Positions 5,039 to 60,130 of a DNA stretch of 60,130 nt are shown here, piece after piece. Each line of letters starts with the position of its first letter. Position 1 is the first letter of the stretch. The notes under the pieces were generated by a model that was given only the letters and a program-made list of their open reading frames with translations, did not search any database and had not been told where the DNA came from. The stretch comes from a virus. The translations under genes and the position numbers were made by a program. The DNA lies in the IMG/VR virus record IMGVR_UViG_3300006854_000005. One strand, written 5' to 3'.

Positions 5039-5826
5039 GACCGCCTCCCCGTCCGCACGTCGTGCAGCGTCTGTGCGAGCTGCGCCATCGCCAGCCGTGT
5101 CGTGACGATCTCCTCGCTCAGGTTGATGTTGATGGCGCGCTGTTGCTCGGCGTCCTGTAACGCCGAGACTCGGAGCGCCTCGGTGGTCTCAAGCGCGCGC
5201 GTCAGCTTGCACGCCTCACCGGTCTGCTTGATGAGGCGGTTCATCGTCTCGTGGTGCATGTTGGCCTCGCGCTCCAACCGGGCGCGCTCGGTGGCGAACA
5301 GGGTCTGCAGCTCGACCACCTCGTTGCGCTCGGCGTAGAGTTCGTTCGTGGTCATGATCAGCGCCTGTCCGTAGCCCTGTGACTTGCGCTCGAACTCCGC
5401 CCCGATGGACTGTTGCACGGCGAGTTGCCGGGTCAGCGCCTCCACCGTGGCGCTCAGGTTGGCGATCCGCTCGTCGCGTTCGGTCAGCGCCAGTTCGGTC
5501 GCGCCGAGTTGCTGGCAGATCGCCCGGACGTGGTCCTGTGAGCCGACGAGGACCCATAGATCGTCGCGCCCGGTATCGGTCTCGAGCGCGCAGTTCGCGG
5601 CGAGATCGCTGATGTCGTCCTCGGTCGCGGTGTCGAGGTCGGGCAGCGCGATGGCCGGGCGAACATAGGGCAGGCGATCGGGCGCGGGCGGACCGACGAG
5701 CGTGGACTCGGAGGAGTCGGGACAGGGTCCGACGTCGATGAGCGGCATGGGGCGCATATCGACGGTGATCGCGGTGTGGATCGCGAGTTCGTGGAAAGCA
5801 GGGTCGTAGGAGGCGGTCATGTTCAC
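5035..5826 (-). CDS. hypothetical coiled-coil protein, 263 aa
   Basis: Track ORF with a GTGA-coupled start. The C-terminal two-thirds are heptad-like (ERDERIANLSATVEALTRQLAVQQ...). Confidence 0.6.
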   Translation of the reverse strand: MNMTASYDPAFHELAIHTAITVDMRPMPLIDVGPCPDSSESTLVGPPAPDRLPYVRPAIALPDLDTATEDDISDLAANCALETDTGRDDLWVLVGSQDHVRAICQQLGATELALTERDERIANLSATVEALTRQLAVQQSIGAEFERKSQGYGQALIMTTNELYAERNEVVELQTLFATERARLEREANMHHETMNRLIKQTGEACKLTRALETTEALRVSALQDAEQQRAININLSEEIVTTRLAMAQLAQTLHDVRTGRRS

Positions 5827-6224
5827 TTTGGCTCGTTCATCGTCCGCACGTACTGCGTGCGATGGAGGTACTTCTGCTCGGGCTTGAGCGGCATCGGCGC
5901 GCGCGAGCCCATGATTCCGGCGACCTTCAACTCGAACTCGCGCTGCTCTGGCGTGTCGAGCGCCACTGGCACACGGGCGGCGATCGCTTCGATCTTGTCC
6001 CCGAGGGCCTTGCGCGCGGCTGCGGCAGTCTTCGCGATCGACTTGCGCTGCGTTTTCTCGAGCGCAGTGGCCGCGCGCCTCATCTTCGCGACGCGCTCCT
6101 TGCGCTCCTTCCGGTAGATCGCGCCAGACGTCGGAGCATCAGCCAGCGACACCGGGCTCAGCTGGTAGACACCGGCGGCGAACACGATTACGACGTAGCG
6201 AAGGGCGTTGGCGAGGTGCTTCAC
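5823..6224 (-). CDS. hypothetical membrane protein, 133 aa
   Basis: Track ORF 5823..6404 trimmed to the GTG at 6224 (GTGA overlap). N-terminal hydrophobic helix ALRYVVIVFAAGVYQL. Confidence 0.5.
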   Translation of the reverse strand: MKHLANALRYVVIVFAAGVYQLSPVSLADAPTSGAIYRKERKERVAKMRRAATALEKTQRKSIAKTAAAARKALGDKIEAIAARVPVALDTPEQREFELKVAGIMGSRAPMPLKPEQKYLHRTQYVRTMNEPK

Positions 6225-6552: not shown

Positions 6553-7049
6553 GGGCGGACTCCGAGCGTCCGACGCACGTGCTCCGCGGGCAGGTACTGG
6601 CACACCGGCATGTTCGGCGACTGCCAGTAGCGGGCGACGTTCTCCTCGAGCTTTGTCCACACGCGCGAGATGTCGGTGCCGTCCGGGAGGCGCTGCACGT
6701 CGAGCGGCAGGTTCGGCTTGTAGGTCATCTTGACCAGCTGGACCGGGGCGAAGCCCTCGATCTCCATGATCGCCCCGCTCGACAGGGGTCGCATCTCGCC
6801 GTCGCCGCCGATGACCATGTGCTGGCTCGCCGCGTCCACCAGCCGGTACTCGTCGGTCGGAATGACTGCATCGAAGGATGGCATCGCCGCGTTGGACACG
6901 AACCCGCGAAGCTCGAACTTCGGCGTACCGCGCTCGAAGAAGCTCTCGGTCCGGGAAATCAGAAGCGCGTGCGTGTGAGTGCGAACGCCCTGCAGCGTGA
7001 CGAACTGCAGGTTGGTGATCAGTGTGTAGCGGTCGACGATGGTGCTCAC
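6549..7049 (-). CDS. hypothetical protein, 166 aa
   Basis: Track ORF 6549..7154 trimmed to the GTG at 7049 (GGAGG upstream, GTGA overlap). Confidence 0.55.
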   Translation of the reverse strand: MSTIVDRYTLITNLQFVTLQGVRTHTHALLISRTESFFERGTPKFELRGFVSNAAMPSFDAVIPTDEYRLVDAASQHMVIGGDGEMRPLSSGAIMEIEGFAPVQLVKMTYKPNLPLDVQRLPDGTDISRVWTKLEENVARYWQSPNMPVCQYLPAEHVRRTLGVRP

Positions 7050-7228
7050 GGCCGACCTCCATGCATCGCCTCGATCCAGACCCGTGCCGCCTCGTCTGCG
7101 TGGAACTTGATCCGCTGCGTCACCGCGCGGCTCGCCGCTTCGTCGCGGGCCCACGGCATGAGTTGCTGACCGACGTCGATGACAGGCAGGGTCGGCGTCC
7201 AGTCGACGGGGAGACGCTGGGTGGTCAC
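7046..7228 (-). CDS. hypothetical protein, 60 aa
   Basis: Track ORF 7046..7345 trimmed to the GTG at 7228 (GGAGG upstream, GTGA overlap). Confidence 0.45.
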   Translation of the reverse strand: MTTQRLPVDWTPTLPVIDVGQQLMPWARDEAASRAVTQRIKFHADEAARVWIEAMHGGRP

Positions 7229-7422
7229 AGCCGACCTCCGGTGAGGAACGAGTGGGCGAAGTCGATAAACGCGAACTCGATCTCGGCTGCGACTCGCGTA
7301 CTCAGGCCGTGGTTGAGCGCCAGACCGGAGGCGTACTCGACGCACCGCTCGTACGTCGAGTGGTCCAGGTTCTTGACCTCCAGGTAGAGGCGGTCGATGC
7401 GCTCCTGTCGCTTGGCGTTCAC
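7225..7422 (-). CDS. hypothetical protein, 65 aa
   Basis: Track ORF 7225..7581 trimmed to the GTG at 7422 (GGAGG upstream, GTGA overlap). Confidence 0.45.
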   Translation of the reverse strand: MNAKRQERIDRLYLEVKNLDHSTYERCVEYASGLALNHGLSTRVAAEIEFAFIDFAHSFLTGGRL

Positions 7423-7724
7423 GAGCACACCTCCATCCGCGCCTTGTCCGCCGCGGCGCGCACGCTCGCGATGACGCGCTCGGGGCGGCCCTCGAGCGTC
7501 AGGAGCGACGAGACGCGGTCGTAGTAGTCGGCGCGCTCGGAAGCGGTAGCCTCGACGATCTGCGTCGGGTGGAGGATCCACGGGCCGCGACCGAGGACGC
7601 GGTCACCGTGGATGATGTGAGCCTCGGAGGCGGAGTGCCAGCAGAGTTCGGCGATGTGGTTGTCGGCAAGAACGCGGACGATCGTGCCGTTGGGAAGAGG
7701 GCGAGGGGGGTTCGAGAAGGGCAT
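7419..7724 (-). CDS. hypothetical protein, 101 aa; first gene of the leftward early operon
   Basis: Track ORF. There is no Shine-Dalgarno sequence, and promoter-like hexamers sit immediately upstream, suggesting a leaderless mRNA. Confidence 0.55.
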   Translation of the reverse strand: MPFSNPPRPLPNGTIVRVLADNHIAELCWHSASEAHIIHGDRVLGRGPWILHPTQIVEATASERADYYDRVSSLLTLEGRPERVIASVRAAADKARMEVCS

Positions 7725-7730
7725 GTCGAC

Positions 7731-7771
7731 ATGATGACAAGCCGCCCTTGCCGTGTCAAGTCAGACTTGGC
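7731..7771 (-). promoter_or_regulatory. PL-like promoter with overlapping operator
   Basis: Minus-strand TTGACA (7759-7754), 17-nt spacer, CATCAT (7736-7731), then 6 nt to the ATG at 7724. The perfect palindrome CAAGTC-A-GACTTG (7757-7769) overlaps the -35. A GCCAAGTC box (7771-7764) lies upstream of the -35. Confidence 0.45.
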
Positions 7772-7962
7772 GACGTCGTGTCGATTTCGCTCGCCCCCTT
7801 GCGTCATTTCGACGGTCCGCGAGCAACTCCACGACCTTCAGCACTAGGTCGACCGCTTCGTTGTCGTTCCGGATTAGCCGCACCACGATCAGAAGCCTCT
7901 CATCCGGTACGTCCAGCACCGAAGCGCCCATCAAACGGCTGTACTACAGGCGTGTCACGCGC

Positions 7963-8310
7963 TCAAGGCTTCTTCGCACCAAAGCGCCTCGCGATCTGTT
8001 CGACGAGAGCCTTGTCCGCCTCGGATAACTCAGGCCATCTACGGATGAGTTCGCGCAGCCTGTCGTCGAGCAGCGGGACAATTCCACTTGGCGGAGTTCC
8101 GCCGAGCGCAGCCACGATTGCAGGCCATTCGTACGTCCAGATTGCGGTTCCATTAAGGAGCAAGTAGAGATTCTGCCGGGTCATGCCTGCACGGCGTGCC
8201 AGCTCGGCGCGAGTCCACTTGCGATCTGCCAGCCGTCGCGCGATCCAGGCCTTGTCTTCCTTGGTCACGCGGTACGGCGTGCGTGGCGGTTGGTCCTTGG
8301 GGTCCGGCAT
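7963..8310 (-). CDS. CI-like repressor (XRE-family helix-turn-helix)
   Basis: Track ORF 7963..8391 trimmed to MPDPKDQ, with GAGGAAA 8 nt upstream. HTH segment WTRAELARRAGMTRQNLYLLLNG. Divergent from a Cro-like gene. Confidence 0.7.
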   Translation of the reverse strand: MPDPKDQPPRTPYRVTKEDKAWIARRLADRKWTRAELARRAGMTRQNLYLLLNGTAIWTYEWPAIVAALGGTPPSGIVPLLDDRLRELIRRWPELSEADKALVEQIARRFGAKKP

Positions 8311-8340
8311 GCTCGGATTTCCTCGGTAGCACAAGCAGAT

Positions 8341-8389
8341 GCCAAGTCGCCCTTGACTACTCGGACAAGTGTGCCTTACCTTCGTGGTC
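8341..8389 (+). promoter_or_regulatory. PR-like promoter with the same upstream box as PL
   Basis: GCCAAGTC (8341-8348), GCC, then CTTGACT (-35 TTGACT at 8353-8358), 18-nt spacer, TACCTT (8377-8382), then 7 nt to the cro ATG at 8390. No Shine-Dalgarno sequence. Confidence 0.45.
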
Positions 8390-8626
8390 ATGACTGATGG
8401 TCAGCGGCTGATGAAGTGGCGTCTCGCGCGTGGAATCTCACGCCAAAACCTGGCGAAGACCCTTGCGGTCTCTCGGCAGACGATCCTCGCGTGGGAGACC
8501 GGAACGTGGCAGCCGTCGGAGGAGCGATGGCCACAGATCGCGCGCGCACTCGGTCTGCCGGCCCCGAAGCAGCCCAAGCGGCTCGCACCGATTCCCGTGC
8601 CCCCTGCCACGCGGGTAGCTCAGTAG
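8390..8626 (+). CDS. Cro-like XRE-family HTH regulator
   Basis: Track ORF 8369..8626 trimmed to MTDGQRLMKW. HTH segment ISRQNLAKTLAVSRQTILAWETG. Divergent from the repressor gene. Confidence 0.7.
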   Translation: MTDGQRLMKWRLARGISRQNLAKTLAVSRQTILAWETGTWQPSEERWPQIARALGLPAPKQPKRLAPIPVPPATRVAQ

Positions 8627-8849
8627 CTCGAGGCATTCGTCGCCACCGATAGCCACGAGGTTTCAATGGCACAACGCCCGTCATTCGTTCAGCGCGCGTC
8701 CTCGGGACAGTCTGTCCGTATCCCGGACGCTCGCGCACCGATCCGTCCGTCCCATTCCGCGGCCCGCTCGTCGCTGCGTACACCGTCGAGCCTCGTCACC
8801 TCTCAGCCGATGCTCCGGTCGAGTGCTCACGCCCACATCTCCGGGCGCG

Positions 8850-8880
8850 AGTGCGGTGACGAGCGGGTCGCACTTTCTCT
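8850..8880 (+). terminator. weak hairpin plus T-rich tract (tR1-like candidate)
   Basis: AGTGCG (8850-8855) pairs with CGCACT (8869-8874) around a 13-nt loop, followed by TTCTCT. It lies in the 270-nt gap between cro and the RNA ligase gene. Confidence 0.25.
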
Positions 8881-8896
8881 CACCGTGGAGTCCTGA

Positions 8897-9982
8897 GTGG
8901 AAAACCTCGTCCAGCGTCTGATGTCGAGCCGCGCCGATTGGCTCGAGCACCTCGAGAACGACCTGCACATCTCGGTCGTGCGCGACGGCGACCTCGCCTC
9001 GCTCAAGTACAACCAGCTCGAGTCGCCGATGGCCGACCCGATGGTGCAGCAGTGCCGTGGCATGGTCGTCGACTGCGCGAAGCGGCGCGTGCTGGCGTGG
9101 CCGTACAACAAGTTCTTCAATCACGGCGAGCACCTCGCGACCCCGATCGACTGGGCGACCGCGCGTGTGCAGGAGAAGCTCGATGGGTCGCTGATGATCC
9201 TGCACGTGCGCGACTGCATCTGGTCGGTCGCGTCGAGCGGCCATCCGACAGCCGGTGGCTCCTTCGGAAGTGACGCTCGTACCTTTCGCGAGGCGTTCTG
9301 GAAGGTCATGAGCGACCAGGAGATCGACACCGACGAACTGGACGCGCGCGCCACGTACATGCTCGAGCTGTGCGACTCGCCGAACCGTGTCGTCGTCCGC
9401 CACGAGAAGCCACGCCTAGTACTGCATGGTGCCAGGTGGCTGGAGTCGGGCGAGGAGTTCCTTCCTAGCGCGCTTCACAACGCCGGCAACAGCGCGGGGC
9501 TCGAAGTCGTGAACGAATTCGGCATCGCTTCGATCGACCAGTGCCTGTCCGCCGCCGAGGCGCTCGACCCTCTCAAGCAAGAGGGGTTCGTCGTCGTCGA
9601 TGCCGAGTTCAACCGCGTCAAGATCAAGTCGCCGCGCTACGTCATCCTGCACCACCTCAAGGGTGAGGCAACCCCGCGGCGCGCGATCGAGCTGTGGCAG
9701 ACCGGCGAGACCGAGGAACTGCTCAACAGCTTCCCCGAGTTCAAGCCGGTCATCGAGCCGATTCAGGCGGACCTGGACCTGATCGCCGAGCAGTGCGTGA
9801 AGGACTTCGAGGAGAACATGCCGCGCGCGAGCCGCAAGGAGTTCGCGATGGCCGTGAAGGATCGGCCGTGGTCGTCGGTGCTGTTCAGGATGCTCGGCGA
9901 GGAGCGGCACGACGTGGAGACCGCGAAGGCGATCATGCGGCGCGGCTCGCTGCAGAGCCTGGAGAGGATGCTCGGGCGATGA
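8897..9982 (+). CDS. ATP-dependent RNA ligase (Rnl1/Trl1-like nucleotidyltransferase)
   Basis: 361 aa. Motifs: KFFNHGE, then motif I EKLDGS, motif III YMLELCDSPNRVV, motif IV EGFVVVD, motif V RVKIKSPRY. The GTG start could instead be the ATG at 8921. Confidence 0.8.
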   Translation: MENLVQRLMSSRADWLEHLENDLHISVVRDGDLASLKYNQLESPMADPMVQQCRGMVVDCAKRRVLAWPYNKFFNHGEHLATPIDWATARVQEKLDGSLMILHVRDCIWSVASSGHPTAGGSFGSDARTFREAFWKVMSDQEIDTDELDARATYMLELCDSPNRVVVRHEKPRLVLHGARWLESGEEFLPSALHNAGNSAGLEVVNEFGIASIDQCLSAAEALDPLKQEGFVVVDAEFNRVKIKSPRYVILHHLKGEATPRRAIELWQTGETEELLNSFPEFKPVIEPIQADLDLIAEQCVKDFEENMPRASRKEFAMAVKDRPWSSVLFRMLGEERHDVETAKAIMRRGSLQSLERMLGR

Positions 9983-10368
9983 AATCCGCCGCATCCCCCA
10001 AAAAGGTCCCCAATTCGGGGAGTAAATCCGGCGATCGGGCGGGAAACATCCCCAGGCGCGGTCGTCCGCTCGGCGCCGTCGATCGCCACGGGCGCGCGCA
10101 TCGAGCGCAGATTCGCCTCGGTACCACCGTGTGGCGCTCGTTCTGCGTCGCGTTCGGACGTCGACTCGATCAGCTGATGGCCGAGCGGGACATCGCCGCT
10201 ACCGAGTTGGCCGCGGCGATTGGGCAGCACGAGCAGTCGATCCATCAGCTGCGGCGCGGCATGCGGATGCCGCACATGGTCACGCTGGCTGCGATGAGCG
10301 AGGCGCTCAGCTGCGCGCTCGTGGACCTGCTGCCTGAGCAGGCGCATGGCGCGGGAGGTGGTGTGTGA
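9979..10368 (+). CDS. XRE-type HTH DNA-binding protein with basic N-terminal tail
   Basis: Track ORF 9694..10368 trimmed to MKSAASPKK (ATGA overlap). HTH segment IAATELAAAIGQHEQSIHQLRRG. Confidence 0.6.
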   Translation: MKSAASPKKVPNSGSKSGDRAGNIPRRGRPLGAVDRHGRAHRAQIRLGTTVWRSFCVAFGRRLDQLMAERDIAATELAAAIGQHEQSIHQLRRGMRMPHMVTLAAMSEALSCALVDLLPEQAHGAGGGV

Positions 10369-10733
10369 GGCGCTTCGTCTACTACATGGCGCACCCACTG
10401 GGTGGTGACGTCGACGTCAACATGAAGCGGGCTGGGCGATGGCTGTCGTGGTTGCGACGGACGTTCCCGAAGGTCACGTTCATCGCGCCGTGGATCGCTG
10501 CAGTGATGTCGGGTGAGAGCGACGACGATCCAGCGCAACGCGAAGCGGGGCTCGTCGATGCGGTAGCAGTCGTGGCCGTATGCGACGGCGTTGTCATGGT
10601 CGGTGGGCGCATCTCGTCGGGCATGGAGCGCGAGCGCCAGGCGGCGTCATGGGAGCTGGACCTGACCGACCTCGGCGATGAGCCGCCTGCCGACTTCGAG
10701 CAGTGGACACGAACCCCGGTGTGGTGGATATGA
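10365..10733 (+). CDS. DUF1937/DUF4406-like protein (nucleoside 2-deoxyribosyltransferase-like fold)
   Basis: 122 aa. Family-like pattern YYMAHPLGG..N..RA.., FIAPWI, CDGVVMVGGRISSGMERE. GTGA-coupled start. Confidence 0.5.
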   Translation: MRRFVYYMAHPLGGDVDVNMKRAGRWLSWLRRTFPKVTFIAPWIAAVMSGESDDDPAQREAGLVDAVAVVAVCDGVVMVGGRISSGMERERQAASWELDLTDLGDEPPADFEQWTRTPVWWI

Positions 10734-10984
10734 CCGCCTCCTACTTCGACCACCTGACCACGCCTCGCCACCAACACGTCCCCGACAGCGATGGCCTGTG
10801 CACGTACCTGCTGGTCGTCGACGGGGCGTTCGTGCAGTCACTGTCGCCCGTCAAGACGACGCTGTCGGATCTCGAGGCTATCGCGTTCCTGTGGCCGCAC
10901 TCGGAGGCGGAGAAGTGGTTCCGCGAACTGGTGGAGCGGTGGCCGTACCTGAGAGGCGCGCAGGCGGTGAGGGGTAGACCGTGA
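10730..10984 (+). CDS. hypothetical protein, 84 aa
   Basis: Track ORF 10703..10984 trimmed to MTASYFD (ATGA overlap). Confidence 0.5.
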   Translation: MTASYFDHLTTPRHQHVPDSDGLCTYLLVVDGAFVQSLSPVKTTLSDLEAIAFLWPHSEAEKWFRELVERWPYLRGAQAVRGRP

Positions 10985-11580
10985 TCGCGGCACTGTACGT
11001 CGAGCGGGGCGGCGTGTACTTAGGACTCGACGGCGTCGATCCGTGGGACGAGTCGCGCGATGCGAGGCTGTACGCTGGACCGTGGCCGGTCGTGGCACAT
11101 CCGCCGTGTGAGCGATGGGGGCGGTGGGCCGGCGAGATGGCGGGGCAGGACAACGGCTGTTTTGAATCCGCGCTGAGATCGGTGCGGACATGGGGGGGTG
11201 TGCTGGAGCATCCTGAGGCGTCGCTCGCCTGGCCGGTCTTCGGACTGATCCGTCCGCTTCGGGGCGGAGGGTGGTCGGCTGCCGGAGACGGCATCGGGTG
11301 GACGTGCTGCGTGGAGCAGGGGCACTACGGCCATCGAGCTCGTAAGGCTACTTGGCTGTACGCGGTCGCCAGCACTCTTCCAGCGCTAACATGGGGGCGC
11401 AGCGATCCAGCGATCAGGCCACGTCCGGGACGTGACCCGAAGCGAGAGCGCCGCATCGGAGCGGTCCAGCGGATGTGCCGCAAGGAGCGCCGGGCCACAC
11501 CGGTGCCATTCCGGGATGAGCTGCTCGCGATCGCGAGGTCCGCCGCACCACGACTTCCGCTCGCACTTGAGGCCGCATGA
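10981..11580 (+). CDS. hypothetical 199-aa protein with C5-pyrimidine-methyltransferase-like motifs (HPPC, LEHP, GHRARK)
   Basis: VVAHPPCERW resembles motif IV (PC), VLEHPEAS resembles motif VI (ENV), HYGHRARKATW resembles motif VIII (QxRxR), and RRATPVPFRDELL resembles the C-terminal motif. It is too short to hold a target-recognition domain. GTGA-coupled start. Confidence 0.3.
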   Translation: MIAALYVERGGVYLGLDGVDPWDESRDARLYAGPWPVVAHPPCERWGRWAGEMAGQDNGCFESALRSVRTWGGVLEHPEASLAWPVFGLIRPLRGGGWSAAGDGIGWTCCVEQGHYGHRARKATWLYAVASTLPALTWGRSDPAIRPRPGRDPKRERRIGAVQRMCRKERRATPVPFRDELLAIARSAAPRLPLALEAA

Positions 11581-11750
11581 CCAGCACCACCGCTCGCATC
11601 TTCTCGACCCTCCTCGTCGCGTTCGTCGTCGCCGTCTACGTCACGCTGTACGTCATCGCCGGTGCGTGGCCGATCGTGGCGCTGGCGGTATTCGGTGGGA
11701 TGTTGATCGCCGCGGCGGTTGGCGGGCTCAGATACGACGGGGCGCCGTGA
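11577..11750 (+). CDS. small two-helix membrane protein, 57 aa
   Basis: Below the track cutoff. MTSTTARIFSTLLVAFVVAVYVTLYVIAGAWPIVALAVFGGMLIAAAVGGLRYDGAP. ATGA and GTGA overlaps at its ends. Confidence 0.45.
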   Translation: MTSTTARIFSTLLVAFVVAVYVTLYVIAGAWPIVALAVFGGMLIAAAVGGLRYDGAP

Positions 11751-12511
11751 TCCACTACCACGGCGGACCCGTCACCCCGAACGACGCAGCGGTCACGCTG
11801 TGGACGCGGCGGCATGCGCTGGTCTCGTTCGAGGAGCAACGACAAGCAGCGCTCGCGTTCGAGATCGCGCAGACCGTGCTGCTCGACAACGGGGCGTTCT
11901 CGCTCTGGCAGGACGGTGGTGGTGATGTCGATGTCGCAGCCTACGGCGACTGGGTCTGCGAGTGGCACCTCCATCCGGCATTCGATGGCGCCATCATCCC
12001 AGACAAGATCGGCGGTTCGACGTTCGACAACGAGAAGCTGGTCGCGCGCTGGCTCCAGCATCCAGGTCGCCCAAAGCGTGGAATCCCAGTCTGGCACCTC
12101 GACGAGGACCTCGCGAGACTGCGTGATCTCGTGCACAGCGCTACATGTGGGATCTTCCCGGCCGTTGCGCTCGGCTCGAGCGGGCAATGGGCTACGCCAG
12201 GCACCGACTCCTGGTGGTCGCGCATGTCCGAAGCCATGGATGTCGCCTGCGATGAGCTGGGCCGCCCGAGGTGTCGACTGCACGGCCTTCGCATGCTGTC
12301 GCCGGCGATCTTCGCGCATCTCCCACTCGCGAGTGCCGACAGCTGCAACGTCGCTCGGAACATCGGGATCGACAAGAAGTGGACGGGCACATACGCTCCG
12401 CTCACGTCGGCGCAGCGAGCTCTCGTTCTGGCCGAGCGCATCGAACTTTCACCGGCCGCATCGGTCTGGTCGAAGCCCGCGCAAACCACGTTTTCCTTGG
12501 TGGCACCATGA
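11747..12511 (+). CDS. DpdA-like DNA/tRNA-guanine transglycosylase family protein
   Basis: Track ORF 11432..12511 trimmed to the GTG at 11747, giving 254 aa. LLDNGAFS resembles the TGT DSGGFQ catalytic-Asp motif, and ASADSCNVARN resembles the second Asp motif. Coupled (ATGA) to queE. Confidence 0.55.
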   Translation: MIHYHGGPVTPNDAAVTLWTRRHALVSFEEQRQAALAFEIAQTVLLDNGAFSLWQDGGGDVDVAAYGDWVCEWHLHPAFDGAIIPDKIGGSTFDNEKLVARWLQHPGRPKRGIPVWHLDEDLARLRDLVHSATCGIFPAVALGSSGQWATPGTDSWWSRMSEAMDVACDELGRPRCRLHGLRMLSPAIFAHLPLASADSCNVARNIGIDKKWTGTYAPLTSAQRALVLAERIELSPAASVWSKPAQTTFSLVAP

Positions 12512-13119
12512 CGATCTACCCACTCGCGAAGGACGGCGTGTTCTGGACCCTCCAGGGCGAGGGGCATCTTCGCGGCTTCCAGATGGCGTTCATCCGCCTC
12601 GCTGGGTGCTCGGTCGGGTGTGCTCAGTGCGATACCGACTATCGCGTTGATGACAGGGTGAGCGTCGACGGAGTCATAGAGCGACTCATCGCTGTGACGC
12701 CAACCCGATCGCGCGACCGGTGGGCATGGATCACCGGCGGTGAGCCAACCGACCATGACCTGACTCCGCTGCTGCGTGCGCTCCGGTCGGCTGGGTTCTC
12801 GACGGCGCTTGCCACGTCGGGCGTGCGCCGCATGATACCGCCCGTCGACTGGCTGTCGGTGTCACCGCACGGCAACGCGCTGGTCCAGCGCTATGGCAGC
12901 GAGATCAAACTCGTCGACGGACTCGGTGGACTCGACCTCGAGCGGTGGCACTCCGAGAACCCGGACGACTCCAACGACTTCATGTACCGCTACGTCCAGC
13001 CTCTCACGATCGGCGGGGTCGAAAGTAGGTCGTCGCTGCAGCGGTGCATTGACTTCCTGCGCACGCGCCCGAACTGGTCGCTGAGTCGCCAGGACCATCG
13101 GCACTGGAGCGTGGCATGA
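12508..13119 (+). CDS. queE: 7-carboxy-7-deazaguanine synthase (radical SAM QueE)
   Basis: Track ORF 12271..13119 trimmed to MTIYPLAKDG, giving 203 aa. Motifs FWTLQGEG, FIRLAGCSVGCAQCDTDY (CX3CX2C) and WITGGEP. Confidence 0.8.
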   Translation: MTIYPLAKDGVFWTLQGEGHLRGFQMAFIRLAGCSVGCAQCDTDYRVDDRVSVDGVIERLIAVTPTRSRDRWAWITGGEPTDHDLTPLLRALRSAGFSTALATSGVRRMIPPVDWLSVSPHGNALVQRYGSEIKLVDGLGGLDLERWHSENPDDSNDFMYRYVQPLTIGGVESRSSLQRCIDFLRTRPNWSLSRQDHRHWSVA

Positions 13120-13490
13120 CCCCCGCCTACCTCACCACCGGCGTGACGCTGGTCCACACCGAGCAACCATCGACGTGGCACGCACTCCGCGCCGCGTACC
13201 CGGGCGGACGCATCATCACGACCTGCGTGCTCGAGCTGCCGTACGCGAGGGTCAACGTGATGGTCGTGCGACCCGGTGAGCGGTTGCCGTCGAACATCTG
13301 CGGCGCCTGCAGGCGGCATGTGGAGATCGCGATGCACGGGGCGAGTGTTCCGGTCGAGGCGTCACGGGTGGCGACGGTGGATCTGAGGCGCCCGGAGCGC
13401 CCGAGGGCCAGAAGCGAGGAGTGGAGCGAGAGCGCCGTGCCGGAAGTGGTGATGGCGGAGATGACGAGCAGGGGCGCGAGGGCGGGATGA
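13116..13490 (+). CDS. hypothetical protein, 124 aa; last gene of the coupled cassette
   Basis: Track ORF with an ATGA-coupled start. Confidence 0.5.
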   Translation: MTPAYLTTGVTLVHTEQPSTWHALRAAYPGGRIITTCVLELPYARVNVMVVRPGERLPSNICGACRRHVEIAMHGASVPVEASRVATVDLRRPERPRARSEEWSESAVPEVVMAEMTSRGARAG

Positions 13491-13588
13491 TATTTTCCGC
13501 TGCAAGCGACCCTGAAGTTCTGGGTTGTCCTTCCACCCGACGACGAATCGAGATTGCCTCTCTCAGCAGAGCGTGGGACTGATACACA

Positions 13589-14530
13589 ATGGACTGGCCG
13601 AACGAGGAGTATGTGAAGGTCTATCGTCGAGAGACTGACGACGACCTCGTCCTTTCCTGGCAGGCCCGCGCGCTGTGGAAGGAGATGCTGGTCAAGTTCG
13701 ACCGGTCCGGTCTGATCGAGACACGCCGTGGCGCCCGCGGGCTCGCCGCGATGGTCCGCTGGCCGCTCGATGTGGTTGAGGTAGCACTGCCTGAGCTCGT
13801 GGAAGACGGCCGGGTGAGGCCGGTTGCTACCGGGTTTTTCGCCCCGAACTTCCTTGAGGCCCAGGAGGCGTCGAAGAGCGACAGGGCCCGACAGCGAGAA
13901 TCCAGGCAGCGACGTGCGTCGACCGCGAATCGCGCAGTTACCCCACAAATCTGTCACGACGACACGCCATCACGTGACCAGACGTCACGCGGCCCCGAAG
14001 CGCCGGACGAAACGTCACAAGTTGTCACTCTATCCTCTGCTGATCCTAACCCTCTGCTGAGCGAGCCTCGCGCGCGCGAGATCCCACCTACTGCCGTACC
14101 GAGTACCGGGTACGACGCAGAGAACCCACGTCAGCGTGGCGCCCTAGCCGAGAGCACGTTTGCTCGCGTGAGCGAGGCGAGACTCGATCTCGCCCGGGAA
14201 TTCGGGCTTCCTGAACAGCTGCCGTTTCCTACTGTCACCCCAGGGTCACAGCCACAGGCGTTCCGCGACCTATGCGACAGAGTCCGCGAAGAAGGCTCAA
14301 GCGCGCCCCTGGTGTGCAACGTAGTCGTCGAGTCACTGATCGCGGAGGCCCGTAGAACCAGAAGCGTGGAGTGGGTTTCCCTCAAGGCATTCTCTAGCGG
14401 GGCCTGGAACACAGCACGAGAGCGGGTGCCCGGCTGGAAGAAGTCTCGAGCCGGACCCGCATCGCTCCGAATCTCATCGCCGTCCGACGACCCCGACCTC
14501 AGCAACGACCCGTTCGCTCCACGCCCATGA
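13589..14530 (+). CDS. replication initiator/organiser-like protein (N-terminal winged-helix, low-complexity linker)
   Basis: 313 aa, directly upstream of and coupled to the helicase ORFs. The linker region carries iteron-like repeats. Confidence 0.45.
   Translation: MDWPNEEYVKVYRRETDDDLVLSWQARALWKEMLVKFDRSGLIETRRGARGLAAMVRWPLDVVEVALPELVEDGRVRPVATGFFAPNFLEAQEASKSDRARQRESRQRRASTANRAVTPQICHDDTPSRDQTSRGPEAPDETSQVVTLSSADPNPLLSEPRAREIPPTAVPSTGYDAENPRQRGALAESTFARVSEARLDLAREFGLPEQLPFPTVTPGSQPQAFRDLCDRVREEGSSAPLVCNVVVESLIAEARRTRSVEWVSLKAFSSGAWNTARERVPGWKKSRAGPASLRISSPSDDPDLSNDPFAPRP
13950..14060. repeat. iteron-like repeats inside the initiator gene (candidate ori)
   Basis: GTCAC at 13953, 13984, 14014 and 14024, inverted GTGAC at 13974, and the CACGTG palindrome at 13971. 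CCTCTGCTGA occurs twice (14034-14043 and 14051-14060). Local drop in GC. Confidence 0.4.
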
Positions 14531-43135: not shown

Positions 43136-46100
43136 ATGCCGCTACTTCGCTCACCCAGCGGCGCCGTCATCGACGTTCCGGCCGAGCAGGTCGGCAACTA
43201 CGTCGGGTACGAGCCGGTCGAGGGCGCTGACGCGTCACGCGCGATTGCCGCACCTGAGTCACCCGATCGCGGCGTGCTCGGTGGCATCAACGCCGCGGCG
43301 ACCGGAATCCTCAGCGGCGCCACGCTCGGCCTGTCCGACTACGCGCTCAAGGGCCTGCTCGACAAGGGCGAGTTCGAGCGCCTCGCCTCAGAGCGCGAAG
43401 GTCATCCTGTCGCGAGCGGCATCGGACAGGTCGCGGGCGCAATTCTGCCGGCCGTCGCCGCACCCGGGTCGCTGCTCGGCAGCGCACCGTCTGGTCTCGT
43501 CTCGCACGCGCTCGCGCCGATGGTTGCCGAGGGCCGCGCGATCGGCGGCGCCGCGGGCGTCGGCCGGGTGCTCGCCGCGGGCGGTATCGAGGGCGCGGTC
43601 CAGAACGCCGGAATGTACCTGTCCGACACGGCGCTCGGCGACCGCGAGCTGTCGGCGGAGGGGTTGGCCGCATCGCTCGGGCCGGGGTTCGCGTTCGGCG
43701 TTGCCGGCGGCGCTGCGGCGCTCGGGATCGAGCATGGGACGATCGCAGCGCGGCGCCTGTTCTCGCGGGTCGGTGCCGCTGACAAGGCTGCGCTCGAGGC
43801 CGAATCGGCGTGGCAGGCGGCGCATCAGTCGACGCTCGAGGCGAATGACGCCGCGGCGGATATGGCGCGTGCGCGGCTGGCCGAGACGCGCGCCGCGCGC
43901 GAGCAGGCTCAGCTGGCCAAGCAGCGCGCGAAGCTGCGGGTGGTCGAGACCGAGCAGGCCGCGCCGCAGATCGACGCGACGTACAAGGCTGCATCGGTCG
44001 AGCGCGAGCAGGTCAGGGACGCGGCCAAGGCGGCATATGAGCAGGCCGCAACCCCGCCCGCTCAGCCCATCACGCCCCGCCTGCACGAGGGCCTCCGTGG
44101 CATGGGGCTCACCGACGCCGAGATCTCCGCCATGTCGCCGGCCGACCTCGCCGAGGCAACCCGGCTCATCGAGGGCGCCGACGCGGAGCTCGCGGCGATG
44201 CAGGGTGCCCGTCCACCCCTGCCCGAGGCGAAGGCCGCCGAGCTCGAGCAGGCCGTCGCGGAGCACGACGCCGCGCGCGCCGAGCTGGACGACATGCTGC
44301 GCCACCTCGAGGCGCCCGACATCGGCCCGGGTATCGCACCGCCATCGCGCGAGGTCCCGATCGGGGAGTTCGGGGCGCCTGGGCAGCGCGGCTACGACCC
44401 GGGCAACGTCAAGGCGCCAGGCCCGCCGTCGGTCGTCGAGGCACAGACCGTCGATGTCACCGCGGTCGGCAAGAGGAAGTTCGGGCAGGGCACACCGGCC
44501 GAAGGTGCCACGTTGGGCGGTCCGGTCGAGCGTACGCAGGCGCCGAGCGGTCGGGTTCTATCAGAAGGCGAGTTCCGCGAGCGGCAGCGGGCACTCCGAG
44601 CATCGCTTTCCGAGGGCGAGATCAAGCAATCCTTGCAGTACACTCGCGAAGACTACAACGACATCAACCGGTTCCTGCGCGGCGATAAACGCGTGCCCAA
44701 ACTCGGCGATCGCGAGGCCGAGATCATCCCCGCGCTGGATGCGATCATCGATCGATCGGTCCTCGGCGAGCCGATCGTGACCTACCGTGCGGCGCACTTT
44801 GACCCGCACGAAGTCGCGTTCGGTCTGAAACCAGGAGGCGTGTTCGAGGAGCCGGCATTCATGTCGACCTCGTATCGCCAGCACAATATCGGGCGGTTCG
44901 GAAACGTGGATTTCGTGATCACGTCTCCCGTGGGTACTCGAATAGCCCCGATACCGTCGTCGGCATCCGAGGGTGAGTTTCTCCTGCCACGCGGAACACG
45001 GCTGAGAATCACCAACAGGGTAGAGCACCCCGGAGTTGACGAGTTCGGACATCGCCACGTGACGCTCCACGCGACCGTTGAGCCCACCGCCGCGAAGGTC
45101 GCCCCGGCAGCCACCGACACCCTCACCGGCCAGATGCGCGCGATGCAGTCGCGTCTCGGGGCGGGCGAAGACCTCAAGGCGATGGGTGGATCGTCGCGCG
45201 CGGAGTACGCCGCAGCGAAGGCCGAGCGTACCGCGGCGGCAGCGGAGCACTTCCGGGGCGAGGCGATCGCGCGGCATGAGGTGCCCGAGTACGGCGCCCT
45301 GAAGTCGCAACTCGACAAGGCCGGTACCGACTACGTCGAGCAGTCTATTCCGGCCAGCAAGATCGCCGAGCGGGGCTACTACGAGCCGCCCGGTGGCGGG
45401 GCCGACGAGGTCAAGGCGGGCAAGGCCAAAGCGGCAATCGCAGAGGGACAGCGCGAGCCCATCACGCTAAACGTGACGCCGAGCGGGAAGATCGTCGTCG
45501 ACGATGGACGGCATCGGCTCGCGGCAGCGATCGATGCGGACGTCCCGGTCAAGGTGAAGTGGTCGACCGGATACGAGCCGAGCGCGGACATGGTGCGCCG
45601 CACTTCACCGTCCGATCCGTTCTTCGCCGACCTCACGCGCCCAAAGACGCGCGACGCGTACGTCGCGGCGAATATCGGCAGGGCGATGCGCGAAGAGGGG
45701 TCGCACGCTGCGGCGCTGACCAAGGTCGAGCGCGAGTGGGCGGACATGGGGGGTGCGCCGTCCGCGCGGACGGCTCAGCAGGAGGCACCGCAGACGTGGC
45801 GCGAGTTCACGGCCGGCAAGATTGGCGAGTACATGAAGTCCGAGGGCGGCCACGCGGGCGCGATGAAGCGGTTGGGCCAGGAGTGGCAAGAGATCAAGGC
45901 CGGAGGATCTGCGCGCGGTGTAGTCGCCCCAGCCGCAGCACAGAACGCCGTCGAGGACGTCGCGGCAGCTGCCGAGGTCGTCACCAAGTACGAGCGCGCG
46001 TCGGCCAAGCTGACCGATGTGCTCGGCCCAGAGGCACCGCCAGCGGCGCAGGAAGCGGCCAAGGCGTTCCGCGCGGCCGAGGATCACGCCGAGCGCAAGC

Positions 46101-56858: not shown

Positions 56859-57917
56859 TCAACCCCCTTTCTTCGCCCCGCCTTCCAGCACCTTCCACGC
56901 TCGCCTCCTGGCCGCATCCTCCGCCTGCCGCCTGTCGATGTACGCGCCACCGTCCGTCATGCCTGTGCTGGCATGCCCGAGTGCCGCAGCAACCGTCTCG
57001 CTGTGGCTGCCCTGGACCTTGCCTATCGTGGCTGACGTCCCACGCAGACCGTGCGGTCCCACCTCGGGCACGCCGGCGAGTTTGCACAGGCGCCAGACCT
57101 GTTCCCTCGCCCAGTCCTGCGGGCGAGCTCGCGTGGCCGCGTGCGCGAACAGGGGCTCGTCCGCAGCGCGGTCAGCGGCCAGCCTGAGCAGCCCTGGACG
57201 CAGCACGGCCGGCACCTCCGCCTGGCGCCGCCCGGCCTCGGTCTTCGAGTCCGGGATCCAGAACATCCGCCCGTCGTCGTCCACGTCGCGCACACGAGCG
57301 AGTACAACCTCACCGTTGCGGCTGCCGAGCAGCAGGTAAGCAAGCGTGCAGACCGCGCCGTCATCGGTGGCGAGTCGCGCGGCGCAGACGTCGATCACCT
57401 TGCGACTCTCCTCGATCCGGAGCTGCGGCTTGCCCTTCTTACGCCGACCGCGACCCTTCACCTTGGCGAACGGGTTGACCGGCAGCCATCCGCGCTCGGT
57501 GCACCAGACGCCGAACGCCCTGCACGTCGACAGCGCGTTGCGGTGCGTGTCGACCGCGCCGGTGCGCGCGTCGTAGAGCTGCGCTGCTAGCTTCGGGGTG
57601 AGTCGCTTCAGGTCTAGCATCCCGTTCGTCTCGAGCGAGAGCAGCTGACGCAGGTGGTAGCGCTGCCGCTCCACTGTTGATGTGCGGAGCTCTCCCTCGC
57701 TCACCCGCCTCTCCTGGCTCGCGAGGAACGCGGCGACCGCGACGTCGATCGTTCGTGTCTCGGCGTTCTTGCGGAACGCGGCGATGAAGTCGTTCGCTTG
57801 GCGCTCGCTCTCAAAGTAGCGAGAGTCTCGAGAGCCATCCGCTCCGACGCAGATAACTCGCCAACTACCGGCCGAGACGTGGAATGGTCCGTGGCAGCGC
57901 TCGTGTCGTTGTCGCAT
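56859..57917 (-). CDS. int: tyrosine integrase (phage integrase family)
   Basis: 352 aa. Catalytic pattern: LLLGSRNGEV (Arg), HGLRGTSAT (H-x-x-R), LGHASTGMTDGGAYIDR (His...Tyr). Confidence 0.85.
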   Translation of the reverse strand: MRQRHERCHGPFHVSAGSWRVICVGADGSRDSRYFESERQANDFIAAFRKNAETRTIDVAVAAFLASQERRVSEGELRTSTVERQRYHLRQLLSLETNGMLDLKRLTPKLAAQLYDARTGAVDTHRNALSTCRAFGVWCTERGWLPVNPFAKVKGRGRRKKGKPQLRIEESRKVIDVCAARLATDDGAVCTLAYLLLGSRNGEVVLARVRDVDDDGRMFWIPDSKTEAGRRQAEVPAVLRPGLLRLAADRAADEPLFAHAATRARPQDWAREQVWRLCKLAGVPEVGPHGLRGTSATIGKVQGSHSETVAAALGHASTGMTDGGAYIDRRQAEDAARRRAWKVLEGGAKKGG

Positions 57918-59786: not shown

Positions 59787-60088
59787 CTCGCTCTCCTTCC
59801 TCTCGGTACCGGATCCATGTCCGGCACCGTCGGTGCTGTCACGTAGTACCCACTCGCCGGCATCAAGCTCCTCGGCACGTTCGGTGTCGTCACGTCGCCA
59901 GCCTTGCTCAGCACCTCTCGCCCCGCATCGGTCACGACCCATAGCTTGCGACCGCGATCGTCGGTGTCGCGCCACTCGGCGAGACCGTGGCGGGCGAAGA
60001 ACTTGAGCTGTGCGCGCTGGACGAGCACATGCTGACCGGCCGCGACGAGACGGAGGCCGGCAATCTGGTGCGGGTGGAGTGGTGTCAC
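59783..60088 (-). CDS. hypothetical winged-helix-like protein, 101 aa
   Basis: Track ORF. Its GTG start lies inside the terminal repeat and overlaps the stop of the 25..516 gene in the circular form. Confidence 0.5.
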   Translation of the reverse strand: MTPLHPHQIAGLRLVAAGQHVLVQRAQLKFFARHGLAEWRDTDDRGRKLWVVTDAGREVLSKAGDVTTPNVPRSLMPASGYYVTAPTVPDMDPVPRGRRAR

Positions 60089-60130
60089 TTGCGGTCTCCT
60101 TGGAACAGCGGACCGTGGTCTCGGTAGACG
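60061..60130. repeat. Terminal direct repeat, copy 2
   Basis: Identical to nt 1-70. Confidence 0.95.

Follow-up and report, generated by a model that had tools for sequence, protein, structure and literature searches.

Can a phage modify its DNA with a 7-deazaguanine when it encodes just one enzyme of the biosynthetic pathway? This question is raised by two overlapping genes, predicted to encode a DpdA-family transglycosylase and the radical-SAM enzyme QueE, in the window analyzed here (the whole 60,130-nucleotide stretch of viral DNA, IMGVR_UViG_3300006854_000005). The first 70 nt of the window are identical to its last 70 nt, so the assembly is circularly closed at 60,060 bp. Because it closes on itself, genes that are missing can be described as absent from the genome. 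An integrase gene indicates a temperate phage. Nucleotide and terminase-protein searches of INPHARED returned no relatives, and the virus appears from these searches to be a phage without cultured kin. Homologues in GTDB prophages are at most 54% identical and are scattered across Pseudomonadota and Acidobacteriota.

The pair lies in a string of overlapping genes with the following features:

8897..9982, + strand: T4 Rnl1-like RNA ligase (Pfam RNA_lig_T4_1 at 4e-17), head of the overlapping early-gene string 8897..10984
9979..10368, + strand: HTH_26 protein of the same early-gene string, with 4-nt overlaps between gene calls
10365..10733, + strand: DUF7768 / nucleoside 2-deoxyribosyltransferase-like protein (Pfam DUF7768 at 7e-10)
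10730..10984, + strand: 84-aa ORF (gene call)
10981..11580, + strand: compact C5-cytosine-methyltransferase-like protein, 199 aa (phrog_12600 at 1e-58)
11577..11750, + strand: hydrophobic 57-aa ORF between the methyltransferase-like gene and DpdA (public gene call and sequence)
11747..11750, + strand: GTGA overlap of the 57-aa ORF stop and the DpdA start (read from the sequence)
11747..12511, + strand: predicted DpdA-family DNA guanine/7-deazaguanine transglycosylase of the 'singleton-type' clade, GTG start, 254 aa
12508..12511, + strand: ATGA overlap of the DpdA stop and the QueE start (read from the sequence)
12508..13119, + strand: predicted QueE (CDG synthase), a compact radical-SAM enzyme, ATG start, 203 aa
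13116..13490, + strand: 124-aa ORF, function not assigned (gene call), final gene of the overlapping string

Identification of the two enzymes

Public gene calls, made independently, agree on both ORFs of the pair. An earlier note had described the upstream product as DpdA-like, and its coordinates and motifs were borne out. The protein matches phrog_887 ('queuine tRNA-ribosyltransferase') at 4e-55 and is 43-50% identical to the DpdA proteins of phages Epa33, BTP1, SPN3UB, and SfI. Alignment by hhalign with the DpdA1 homologue of yong3 (CAjan-like, Seuratvirus) gave a probability of 97.1% (E 5e-11), and tBLASTn with JG012 and yong3 DpdA queries gave values of 1e-5 to 1e-7. LLDNGAFS (residues 45-52) and ASADSCNVARN (residues 195-205) had been said to resemble the catalytic-Asp motifs of the fold. 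In the hhalign alignment these motifs are in register with those of DpdA1, D47...F51 (LLDNGAF) corresponding to LDSGAF and D198 (SADS) to SCDS.

Similarity to the TGT fold extends from alignment to structure. AF2 predicts a TIM barrel of alternating strand and helix elements (pLDDT 84.8, pTM 0.84), and the best Foldseek matches of this model in BFVD are phage queuine tRNA-ribosyltransferases (2.6e-11 and below, TM 0.55-0.77). Against the PDB, Z. mobilis TGT (4jbr) ranks fourth (E 2e-3, TM 0.51) among what are otherwise mostly generic TIM barrels, with bDpdA (7UI4) outside the top 50 matches; for this model, the PDB comparison supports the fold alone, its TGT-specificity being weak. The profile search suggested in the earlier note came back empty: no Pfam family, PF01702 included, matches the ORF even at E <= 5, and NCBIfam likewise gave none. 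A profile HMM of the clade returned only spurious coiled-coil matches among PDB sequences. The missing Pfam match is not counted against DpdA membership, because the PHROG, hhalign, and structure searches concur.

The active site is intact. The candidate catalytic residues are D47 (general acid/base) with F51, D86, H117, and D198 (nucleophile), to which the G143-S-S-G146 loop and H179-G-L-R-M183 can be added; all are at least 95% conserved among 107 clade members. In bDpdA, D95 acts as general acid/base with F99 at +4, D130 binds the base, and D256 is the nucleophile (PMC10164549). D95/F99 and D256 have counterparts here by motif and alignment. D86 is provisionally equated with D130 on order and spacing only, with a 3-position offset in hhalign. 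The ORF is placed by these comparisons in the phage DpdA (TGT-superfamily) family, and exchange of guanine for a 7-deazaguanine in dsDNA is its predicted activity.

The downstream product had been recognized as QueE from two motifs, and further evidence agrees. FWTLQGEG occupies residues 12-19 and FIRLAGCSVGCAQCDTDY residues 28-45, with CX3CX2C at C34/C38/C41. The ORF matches phrog_2076 (5.6e-19) and TIGR04508 (8.8e-26, 91 bits, the curated NCBIfam equivalog cut-off of 240 not being reached), and its Pfam Radical_SAM match falls under the gathering threshold. When searched against the PDB with phmmer, it matches three solved QueE structures alone (6NHL, 4NJG, 5TGS; 7.5e-20, 1.8e-19, 5.8e-5), and the 4NJG match spans the full ORF. 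The 6NHL and 4NJG alignments agree that Q16/E18/R30 correspond to Q13/E15/R27 of E. coli QueE (EcQueE), which contact the substrate CPH4, and T43 to T40, the Mg2+ residue; these roles are established for the E. coli and Bm enzymes (Mg2+ Thr Ec T40 / Bm T51; PMC11142719, PMC5347944). C34/C38/C41 align with EcQueE C31/C35/C38 of the radical-SAM [4Fe-4S] cluster, and the C-terminal His and GGE SAM motif likewise align. Q16, E18, R30, and T43 are invariant among 18 homologues. The protein represents a divergent phage subfamily, below equivalog level, that is predicted to convert CPH4 to 7-carboxy-7-deazaguanine (CDG).

Such divergence, evident in the sub-threshold NCBIfam and Pfam scores and in a length among the shortest of QueE-like sequences, might instead reflect a radical-SAM enzyme with another substrate or product, in which case the pathway would not run through CDG. 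This we consider highly improbable: the PDB sequence matches are to QueE alone, one of them full length, the substrate, Mg2+, His, and SAM-binding positions all align, and the same subfamily adjoins QueC in three other loci (L174, L175, L177). A role as a cell-division inhibitor, the moonlighting function of E. coli QueE, was also judged unlikely. EcQueE residues 69-85, which adjoin the E45-W67 region required for the division effect, are unmatched in the 203-aa protein in the 6NHL alignment.

Pathway genes and gene neighborhood

The coupling of the two genes, proposed earlier, is apparent in the 4-nt ATGA overlap, a layout typical of translational coupling and suggestive of it here. An unrelated phage contig (L167) has the same overlapping DpdA-QueE layout.

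No gene for QueC, QueD, or FolE had been noticed in the 60 kb, and systematic searches of the closed genome gave the same result. tBLASTn searches seeded with the FolE, QueD, QueC, and Gat-QueC proteins of two phages yielded only E > 0.5. HMMs for QueC, QueD, and FolE, built from 3-4 seeds per family, gave best E-values of 0.23-3.9 against the six-frame ORFs of the circularized genome, compared with 2e-30 for a QueE positive control. The motifs SGGxDS, CxxxHGH, LxxxHRHxF, and PCxxxKPY are absent from all six frames, and precomputed Pfam annotations of all called genes include no FolE, QueD, or QueC family. DpdL, a QueD paralogue, is likewise missing by QueD-family match and by its LxxxHRHxF motif in six frames, and ArcS was not found by BLAST, small HMMs, motif scans, or precomputed Pfam. 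QueE is the sole one of the four preQ0/G+ pathway enzymes (FolE, QueD, QueE, QueC) encoded. The phage must therefore either rely on its host for the remaining steps or place an atypical intermediate in its DNA.

The neighboring genes were considered as hidden pathway steps and rejected: the 84-, 57-, 124-, and 199-aa ORFs and the DUF7768 gene do not co-occur with DpdA or QueE elsewhere. The 199-aa protein, encoded two genes upstream of DpdA within the overlapping string, is C5-methyltransferase-like by Foldseek rather than a hidden QueC or QueD. All 50 of its top 50 PDB matches are C5 DNA methyltransferases (E 2.6e-3 to 0.13; AF2 pLDDT 90.3), and P41-P42-C43, E76-H77-P78, and R121-K122 show little or no variation. 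The 57-aa ORF overlaps each neighbor by 4 nt and gave no significant match in family searches. The 124-aa ORF, with a 4-nt overlap between its start and the end of QueE, has no PHROG or Pfam match; its GCH_III match (E 0.27, 10.9 bits) is at chance level, and it is absent beside DpdA or QueE in every related locus examined. A match to phrog_355 (8.5e-6) falls within the 8897..10984 gene group. A promoter and terminator scan of 7600-14000 gave no signal beyond shuffled expectation that would divide the gene string.

Recurrence of the pairing and the predicted base

The pairing of DpdA with QueE is recurrent. Close metagenomic relatives retain the DpdA-to-QueE order, and 10 close DpdA homologues lie on contigs equal in length to those of window-type QueE homologues, which was counted as recurrent pairing. 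In a second DpdA subclade, another QueE lineage (~31% identical) lies directly upstream of DpdA in 7 IMG/VR loci and at least 6 JGI loci. Among the JGI metagenome matches listed, close relatives are few; type-B pairs were gained, and none of the window type was new. Window-type QueE also adjoins other candidate 'mini DpdA-like' genes, which are identified less securely. Singletons, with no pathway genes nearby, make up about 90% of the clade, and the remainder include DpdA-QueC-QueE (L061), QueD-DpdA (L082, L260), and a full pathway set (L131). 'DpdA + QueE only' modules arose repeatedly, and none of ~240 loci contains 'DpdA + QueC only'.

We give about an even chance to the reading that this early gene pair is a minimal module for 7-deazaguanine modification of DNA, with the host supplying the remainder and preQ0 being the more probable base. 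According to this model, GTP cyclohydrolase I and QueD of the host (which is assumed to carry folE, queD, and queC) would provide CPH4, from which phage QueE would form CDG. The phage would add QueE alone to raise flux at the slow radical-SAM step, and host QueC would turn the extra CDG into preQ0, the likelier inserted base. Once the phage DNA has replicated, DpdA would remove guanine from the duplex and put the free 7-deazaguanine base in its place; if it works as bDpdA and TGT do, D198 would be the nucleophile and D47 the acid/base. DNA modified in this way may be shielded from restriction, as in other DpdA phages. In this scheme we infer the DNA target, the inserted base, the host dependence, and the anti-restriction role.

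Several observations favor host supply. The mosaic pathway content of the clade is consistent with phages supplementing a host pathway piece by piece, and a full Q pathway is generally present in the hosts that DpdA-only phages infect (PMC6884629). Every DpdA tested to date inserts preQ0 (PMC10516641). The three modules in which window-type QueE adjoins QueC point the same way, as does the unchanged pocket: no difference between QueE-paired and unpaired DpdAs was seen in the active-site columns or in the Gly-rich loop (G143-G146 onward), which reads the 7-substituent in TGT and DpdA (PMC10164549). Against host supply, the bias toward QueE without QueC is not what simple supplementation would produce, unless the QueE step generally limits the rate. 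In addition, efficient modification by a singleton-type DpdA has never been demonstrated; modification status was not predictable for singletons, and two DpdA-only phages, for which clade membership is not established, had 0.02% dADG (7-11) or none (Orion) (PMC6884629).

The same bias gives substance to a direct route, self-contained from CPH4, in which DpdA would insert CDG itself to produce dCDG, perhaps processed further, and host QueC would be bypassed. We regard this as a possible but somewhat doubtful alternative. QueE is the final enzyme needed for CDG, the sole pathway gene retained, and translationally coupled to DpdA. Pairing with QueE alone has arisen in no fewer than two QueE lineages and in both gene orders, the mini DpdA-like proteins may be a third, divergent partner, and partners with QueC only are lacking in the ~240 loci. 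Moreover, dCDG occurs in the virus STSV-2 (PMC10516641), and the possibility of CDG insertion was raised by Hutinet et al. 2019 for Bipper, which lacks QueC (PMC6884629). However, acceptance of CDG is demonstrated for no DpdA, QueC-less phages examined had dDG via DpdL with CDG undetected (phiST, PMC10516641), and the predicted 7-substituent loop is alike in paired and unpaired enzymes.

A residue that tracks the pairing hints at functional divergence, which counts against host supply and in favor of the CDG route. Lys is found at DpdA position 87, following the base-binding candidate D86, in 15/22 QueE-paired and 8/113 unpaired proteins, a count with no phylogenetic weighting. L061, which also has QueC, carries Val at this position. 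Most QueE-paired DpdAs are V44/K87/C200, and singletons have F/V/T at these positions. A tentative extension of the direct route is that DpdA-QueE is a self-sufficient 'CPH4-to-DNA' module writing dCDG or a derivative without QueC, V44/K87/C200 marking a switch from preQ0 to CDG specificity. There are nevertheless exceptions, both paired without Lys (P0010, P0045, P0078) and unpaired with it (L007, L024), and the mini-DpdA partners in QueC-less modules have Val after the equivalent Asp. Both preQ0 (via host QueC) and CDG itself are live candidates for the inserted base, and sequence alone does not discriminate between them.

It is also conceivable, but unlikely, that the phage DNA is unmodified, with QueE boosting host queuosine-tRNA and the singleton DpdA having diverged to act on RNA, to work as a glycosylase only, or to be inactive. 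For phages with pathway genes but no DpdA, Hutinet et al. 2019 suggested a boost to Q; they also remarked on possible functional divergence of singleton DpdAs and found no modification in Orion, which has DpdA only (PMC6884629); the absent Pfam TGT match would fit as well. In contrast, the overlap of QueE with DpdA in several independent arrangements argues for one pathway, the conservation of the catalytic motifs (>=95%, n=107) suggests selection as an enzyme, and the gene lies among DNA-metabolism/modification-type genes, including the C5-methyltransferase-like gene and DnaB. Furthermore, 9g DpdA does not complement tgt for tRNA.

Comparison with known systems

The locus is novel as a gene-content variant: the enzymes are known, and the clade is already catalogued as 'singleton DpdA' (PMC6884629). 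The 'DpdA-only' phages of that study (Supp Data 1) include SfI, SPN3UB, and BTP1. The window DpdA falls in the same protein clade as the singleton DpdAs (Hutinet group 3: SfI, SPN3UB, BTP1, HK106, Athena1), with 43-47% full-length identity, and is likewise a ~250-aa minimal TIM barrel encoded in the early/accessory region of temperate phages of Proteobacteria, but the window DpdA is translationally coupled to QueE. The 2019 catalogue has no 'DpdA + QueE only' entries.

Phages with a full pathway differ more strongly. The Queuovirinae (9g, CAjan, NP1/JG012; dG+ or dPreQ0) have a homologous DpdA1, for which preQ0 insertion and restriction protection were shown experimentally (PMC6884629), and their QueE would be expected to catalyze the same reaction. 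However, these virulent siphoviruses cluster FolE, QueD, QueE, and QueC or Gat-QueC, whereas the window has QueE alone in a temperate phage, and its DpdA is ~60 aa shorter than DpdA1 and only 25% identical. phiST (Cellulophaga), ACP17 (Acidovorax; both DpdL, dDG), and Bipper (Mycobacterium) lack QueC yet combine QueE with a DpdA-family enzyme, as here. The QueC-less DpdL phages nevertheless keep FolE and QueD and add DpdL, a CDG decarboxylase, whereas the window has none of these three, and phiST uses DpdA3 with 100% replacement.

Beyond phages of bacteria, the bacterial Dpd enzyme (S. Montevideo, PDB 7UI4) belongs to the same superfamily, with the same proposed double-displacement mechanism. 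It requires the DpdB ATPase and resides within a restriction-modification island, whereas the window lacks DpdB and DpdC. The DNA of Sulfolobus virus STSV-2 contains the QueE product as dCDG, already known from that study (PMC10516641), and the virus encodes DpdA with an incomplete pathway. STSV-2 is, however, an archaeal virus with DpdA and ArcS2 and no QueE, in contrast to the bacterial phage with QueE described here.

The singleton clade is the largest phage DpdA group. Its members are coupled to QueE in several independent ways, and this provides the first evidence from genomes that links the clade to 7-deazaguanine chemistry. DpdA-QueE, at two genes and ~1.4 kb, is the smallest module known. 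Were the CDG reading true, it would provide the first biosynthetic route to dCDG and reveal the substrate used by part of the large uncharacterized 'DpdA-only' clade. Since neither gene attains a Pfam threshold, Pfam-based screens for phages with modified DNA would miss such modules.

Identity of the DpdA and QueE genes

On the basis of sequence comparison and a predicted structure, we conclude that the open reading frame (ORF) at 11747-12511 encodes a true DpdA-family enzyme belonging to the ‘singleton’ clade (DpdA without other 7-deazaguanine pathway genes). The family-HMM check proposed in the earlier note was blank in Pfam, and NCBIfam likewise gave no match. The ORF matches PHROG 887 ‘queuine tRNA-ribosyltransferase’ (4e-55), and a tBLASTn search with it recovers 103 phage records (identity 39-50%), among them Pseudomonas phage Epa33, Salmonella phages BTP1 and SPN3UB, and Shigella phage SfI. 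SfI, SPN3UB and BTP1 have DpdA as their sole pathway gene in Supplementary Data 1 of Hutinet et al. 2019, where DpdA-only viruses form the third and largest group and their modification status was not predictable (PMC6884629).

An 18-member clade profile aligns by hhalign with the DpdA1 homologue of Hafnia phage yong3 (97.1% probability, E 5e-11), with the first catalytic motif VLLDNGAFS opposite VFLDSGAFS, PVWHLDED opposite PCFHYGED, GRPRCRLHGLRM opposite GRPKVKLHAFGI, and the second Asp motif LASADSCNV opposite YSCDSSSWI. Phage yong3, like CAjan, is a Seuratvirus, and the CAjan DpdA has been validated genetically (PMC6884629). In S. Montevideo DpdA, the two essential counterparts are the acid/base D95, accompanied by F99, and the nucleophile D256 (PMC10164549). 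Conservation across 107 clade sequences is at least 95% at D47, F51, D86, H117, G143-S-S-G146, H179-G-L-R-M183 and D198-S199. The AlphaFold model is a TIM barrel (pLDDT 84.8, pTM 0.84) whose best matches in a viral structure library are phage ‘queuine tRNA-ribosyltransferases’ (E down to 2.6e-11); a PDB search is dominated by generic TIM barrels, and the fourth hit is Z. mobilis TGT (E 2e-3). The earlier reading of a DpdA-like transglycosylase upstream of QueE is upheld by the PHROG match and the aligned Asp motifs; the predicted barrel supports the fold, with weak TGT-specificity in the PDB comparison.

The next ORF (12508-13119) had been read as QueE, the radical-SAM synthase of 7-carboxy-7-deazaguanine (CDG), and this identity holds. 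Among all PDB sequences it matches only three QueE structures, that of B. multivorans over its full length; it also matches PHROG 2076 (5.6e-19) and TIGR04508 (8.8e-26; 91 bits, well under the equivalog cut-off of 240). Q16, E18 and R30 lie opposite Q13, E15 and R27 of E. coli QueE, which bind substrate (PMC11142719), R27 by a salt bridge to the CPH4 carboxylate (PMC5347944). C34, C38 and C41 lie opposite the cluster cysteines and T43 opposite the Mg2+ ligand T40 (PMC11142719); none of these residues varies among 18 QueE homologues. In an alignment with 6NHL, the shorter window QueE has no counterpart to E. coli residues 69-85, which adjoin E45-W67, a region that E. coli QueE requires for its moonlighting in cell division (PMC11142719).

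Genome, gene string and missing pathway genes

The window (G+C ~66%), which derives from a metagenome, has an exact 70-nt terminal repeat (1-70 = 60061-60130) and is therefore a circularly closed, complete genome of 60,060 bp, for which genome-wide statements are legitimate. A near-identical metagenome contig (ENA ERZ27257700 k141_6198242) has a length of 60,201 (60,060 + k141), and there are related contigs in JGI 3300007076 and SRR5689908. The phage is a temperate tailed phage: besides an integrase it encodes a YqaJ exonuclease, RecT, a DnaB-type helicase, a large terminase, and structural proteins that include a P22-like portal and an SU10-type adaptor. There are no tRNA genes in the window and no cultured-phage relatives at the nucleotide or terminase level. 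In the tail/ejection region, a 1,448-aa protein (43136-47482, plus strand) contains an ADP-ribosylating exotoxin domain (PF03496, precomputed Pfam).

QueC, QueD and FolE were stated earlier to be missing, and four approaches agree. tBLASTn of the window with FolE, QueD, QueC/Gat-QueC and YhhQ-like seeds from phages JG012 and yong3 gave nothing better than E 0.5. HMMs of 3-4 seeds per family, supplemented with sequences from the related loci L061, L082 and L131, were run against all six-frame ORFs of the circularised genome; QueC, QueD and FolE reached best E-values of 0.23-3.9, compared with 2e-30 for the QueE positive control. No frame of the window contains the motifs SGGxDS, CxxxHGH, LxxxHRHxF (DpdL) or PCxxxKPY (ArcS), and precomputed Pfam annotation across the whole genome contains no FolE, QueD, QueC, DpdL or ArcS family.

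DpdA and QueE belong to a plus-strand gene string (8897-13490) in which every gene overlaps the next by 4 nt, as seen both in our own ORF list and in the public gene calls. The junctions flanking the DpdA gene, read directly from the sequence, are GTGA and ATGA.

Genes of the string, and the integrase
8897-9982, plus: T4 Rnl1-like RNA ligase (Pfam 4e-17), heading the early gene string
9979-10368, plus: HTH_26 protein
10365-10733, plus: DUF7768 protein (Pfam 7e-10), four genes upstream of DpdA
10730-10984, plus: 84-aa ORF
10981-11580, plus: 199-aa ORF (phrog_12600), two genes upstream of DpdA
11577-11750, plus: 57-aa ORF
11747-12511, plus: DpdA-like protein, 254 aa
12508-13119, plus: QueE, 203 aa
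13116-13490, plus: 124-aa ORF
56859-57917, minus: integrase

The 199-aa protein may be a compact cytosine-modifying enzyme. Its family has at least 8,000 unannotated homologues and no Pfam model. In a Foldseek search of the PDB with its AF2 model (pLDDT 90), the top 50 matches are all C5-cytosine DNA methyltransferases, at weak scores (E 2.6e-3 to 0.13, TM 0.23-0.51). The conserved P41-P42-C43, E76-H77-P78 and R121-K122 resemble the PPC, E-H-P and R-K motifs, and the protein is too short for a target-recognition domain. In phage Epa33, a full-size C5 methylase adjoins the DpdA homologue. Within 10981-13119, GC3 is 0.72 for the 199-aa gene, 0.77 for DpdA and 0.81 for QueE, lower than in the core genes (RNA ligase, DnaB, terminase, portal; 0.87-0.91), which hints that the modification genes were acquired later than the core genome.

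Two other members of the string deserve mention. The RNA ligase suggests that tRNA-repair counter-defence is encoded alongside DNA-modification genes. The DUF7768 protein also matches a PHROG ‘nucleoside 2-deoxyribosyltransferase’ (8.5e-6); Hutinet 2019 (PMC6884629) put forward, as speculation, a role for undetected 2'-deoxyribosyltransferases in the deazaguanine modification of phages.

Recurrence of the pairing

We fetched 240 DpdA-clade loci from among the matches listed, 80 each from IMG/VR, GTDB and JGI. QueE lies immediately upstream of DpdA in 7 of the 80 IMG/VR viral loci and upstream in 6 of the 80 JGI metagenome loci, again among the matches listed; this upstream QueE is a separate lineage, only ~31% identical to that of the window. 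Other arrangements are DpdA-QueC-QueE (L061, IMG/VR) and QueD upstream of DpdA (L082, IMG/VR, a true QueD with CFRLHGH; L260, JGI). The GTDB loci (DpdA <=54% identical) are prophages of Pseudomonas, Burkholderiales, Acidobacteriota and others; QueE adjoins DpdA in none of the 80, 79 are singletons, and L131 (Paraburkholderia) has QueC-FolE-QueD-QueE ~3 kb from DpdA.

The window arrangement, DpdA then QueE with overlapping genes, recurs in a different phage, L167 (DpdA 64%, QueE 77% identical). For 10 more close DpdA homologues, pairing with window-type QueE is deduced from equal-sized contigs only, and P0020, a relative with 63% identity, is a singleton. A search starting from QueE agreed with this picture: window-type QueE lies beside a 209-aa ‘mini’ protein in L169, L172, L173, L183 and L187-189, and a mini-type neighbour followed by QueE and QueC in L174, L175 and L177. 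The mini protein (L169:9400-10029; phrog_15826, function not annotated) has LDNDA, VPD, LGGS and SVDGTGW in DpdA motif order, and aligns weakly with the DpdA clade in hhalign (E 0.008, 5% probability). It is probably a divergent DpdA, judged by its motifs, and its family may represent a still smaller DpdA subfamily that has gone unrecognised. Given these upstream, downstream and mini-DpdA pairings, QueE is attached to minimal DpdA more often than any other pathway gene, and the attachment arose more than once; QueC alone is attached to DpdA in none of the 240 DpdA-clade loci examined.

The two enzyme families are known, as is the anti-restriction logic, and in outline the pair is unsurprising to specialists. 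The 182-virus catalogue of 2019 (PMC6884629) has no ‘DpdA + QueE only’ class, and we found no description of one in the literature searched, although the 2023 paper's supplementary tables may list it. The pair offers a compact, testable way into the uncharacterised singleton DpdA clade and the origin of dCDG.

Just upstream of DpdA in L061, a 296-aa protein (5107-5994) with an SGGRTS PP-loop motif, PAPS-reductase/DndC-like in look, may be a further DNA-modification enzyme linked to the clade. In L167, an IS605 OrfB/TnpB (Cas12f-like) gene (7028-8122) lies ~1 kb upstream of the pair, and the contig further encodes an MT-A70 methyltransferase and a dCTP deaminase/dUTPase.

Candidate routes and the Lys87 signature

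In the known pathway, GTP is converted to H2NTP (FolE), CPH4 (QueD), CDG (QueE) and preQ0 (QueC), and after replication DpdA swaps guanine in DNA for preQ0 (PMC6884629, PMC10516641, PMC10164549). A phage with QueE and DpdA alone must therefore obtain CPH4 from its host. The phage QueE would convert this CPH4 to CDG, host QueC would turn the extra CDG into preQ0, and DpdA would insert the preQ0, a route to which we give roughly an even chance. All DpdAs tested to date use preQ0 (PMC10516641). Two further observations were counted for preQ0 insertion: the mosaic pathway content of the clade, which looks like piecemeal supplementation of the host pathway, and the sameness of the active-site residues and Gly-rich loop in QueE-paired and unpaired DpdAs. 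This loop reads the 7-substituent in TGT and DpdA (PMC10164549).

It is possible, if rather unlikely, that DpdA inserts CDG directly. QueE, repeatedly coupled translationally to DpdA, provides the final step towards CDG, which is the sole step retained, and dCDG is present in STSV-2 (PMC10516641). The remaining probability falls to a non-DNA function or a QueE-like enzyme with different chemistry.

An unexpected signature also speaks for CDG insertion. In alignments of the 240 related loci after 95% de-duplication, Lys87 (window 12005-12007), which directly follows the conserved and presumably base-binding D86, occurs in 15 of 22 QueE-paired and 8 of 113 unpaired DpdAs (Fisher 1.7e-9, phylogeny ignored). 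Both QueE-paired lineages carry it; among unpaired DpdAs, those closest to them (L016, L008, P0020) carry V, A or D instead, and L061, with DpdA-QueC-QueE, has Val at this position. The correlation has exceptions, and as a mark of the CDG route Lys87 is a lead only. V44 and C200 show a similar bias, which is weaker and clade-linked.
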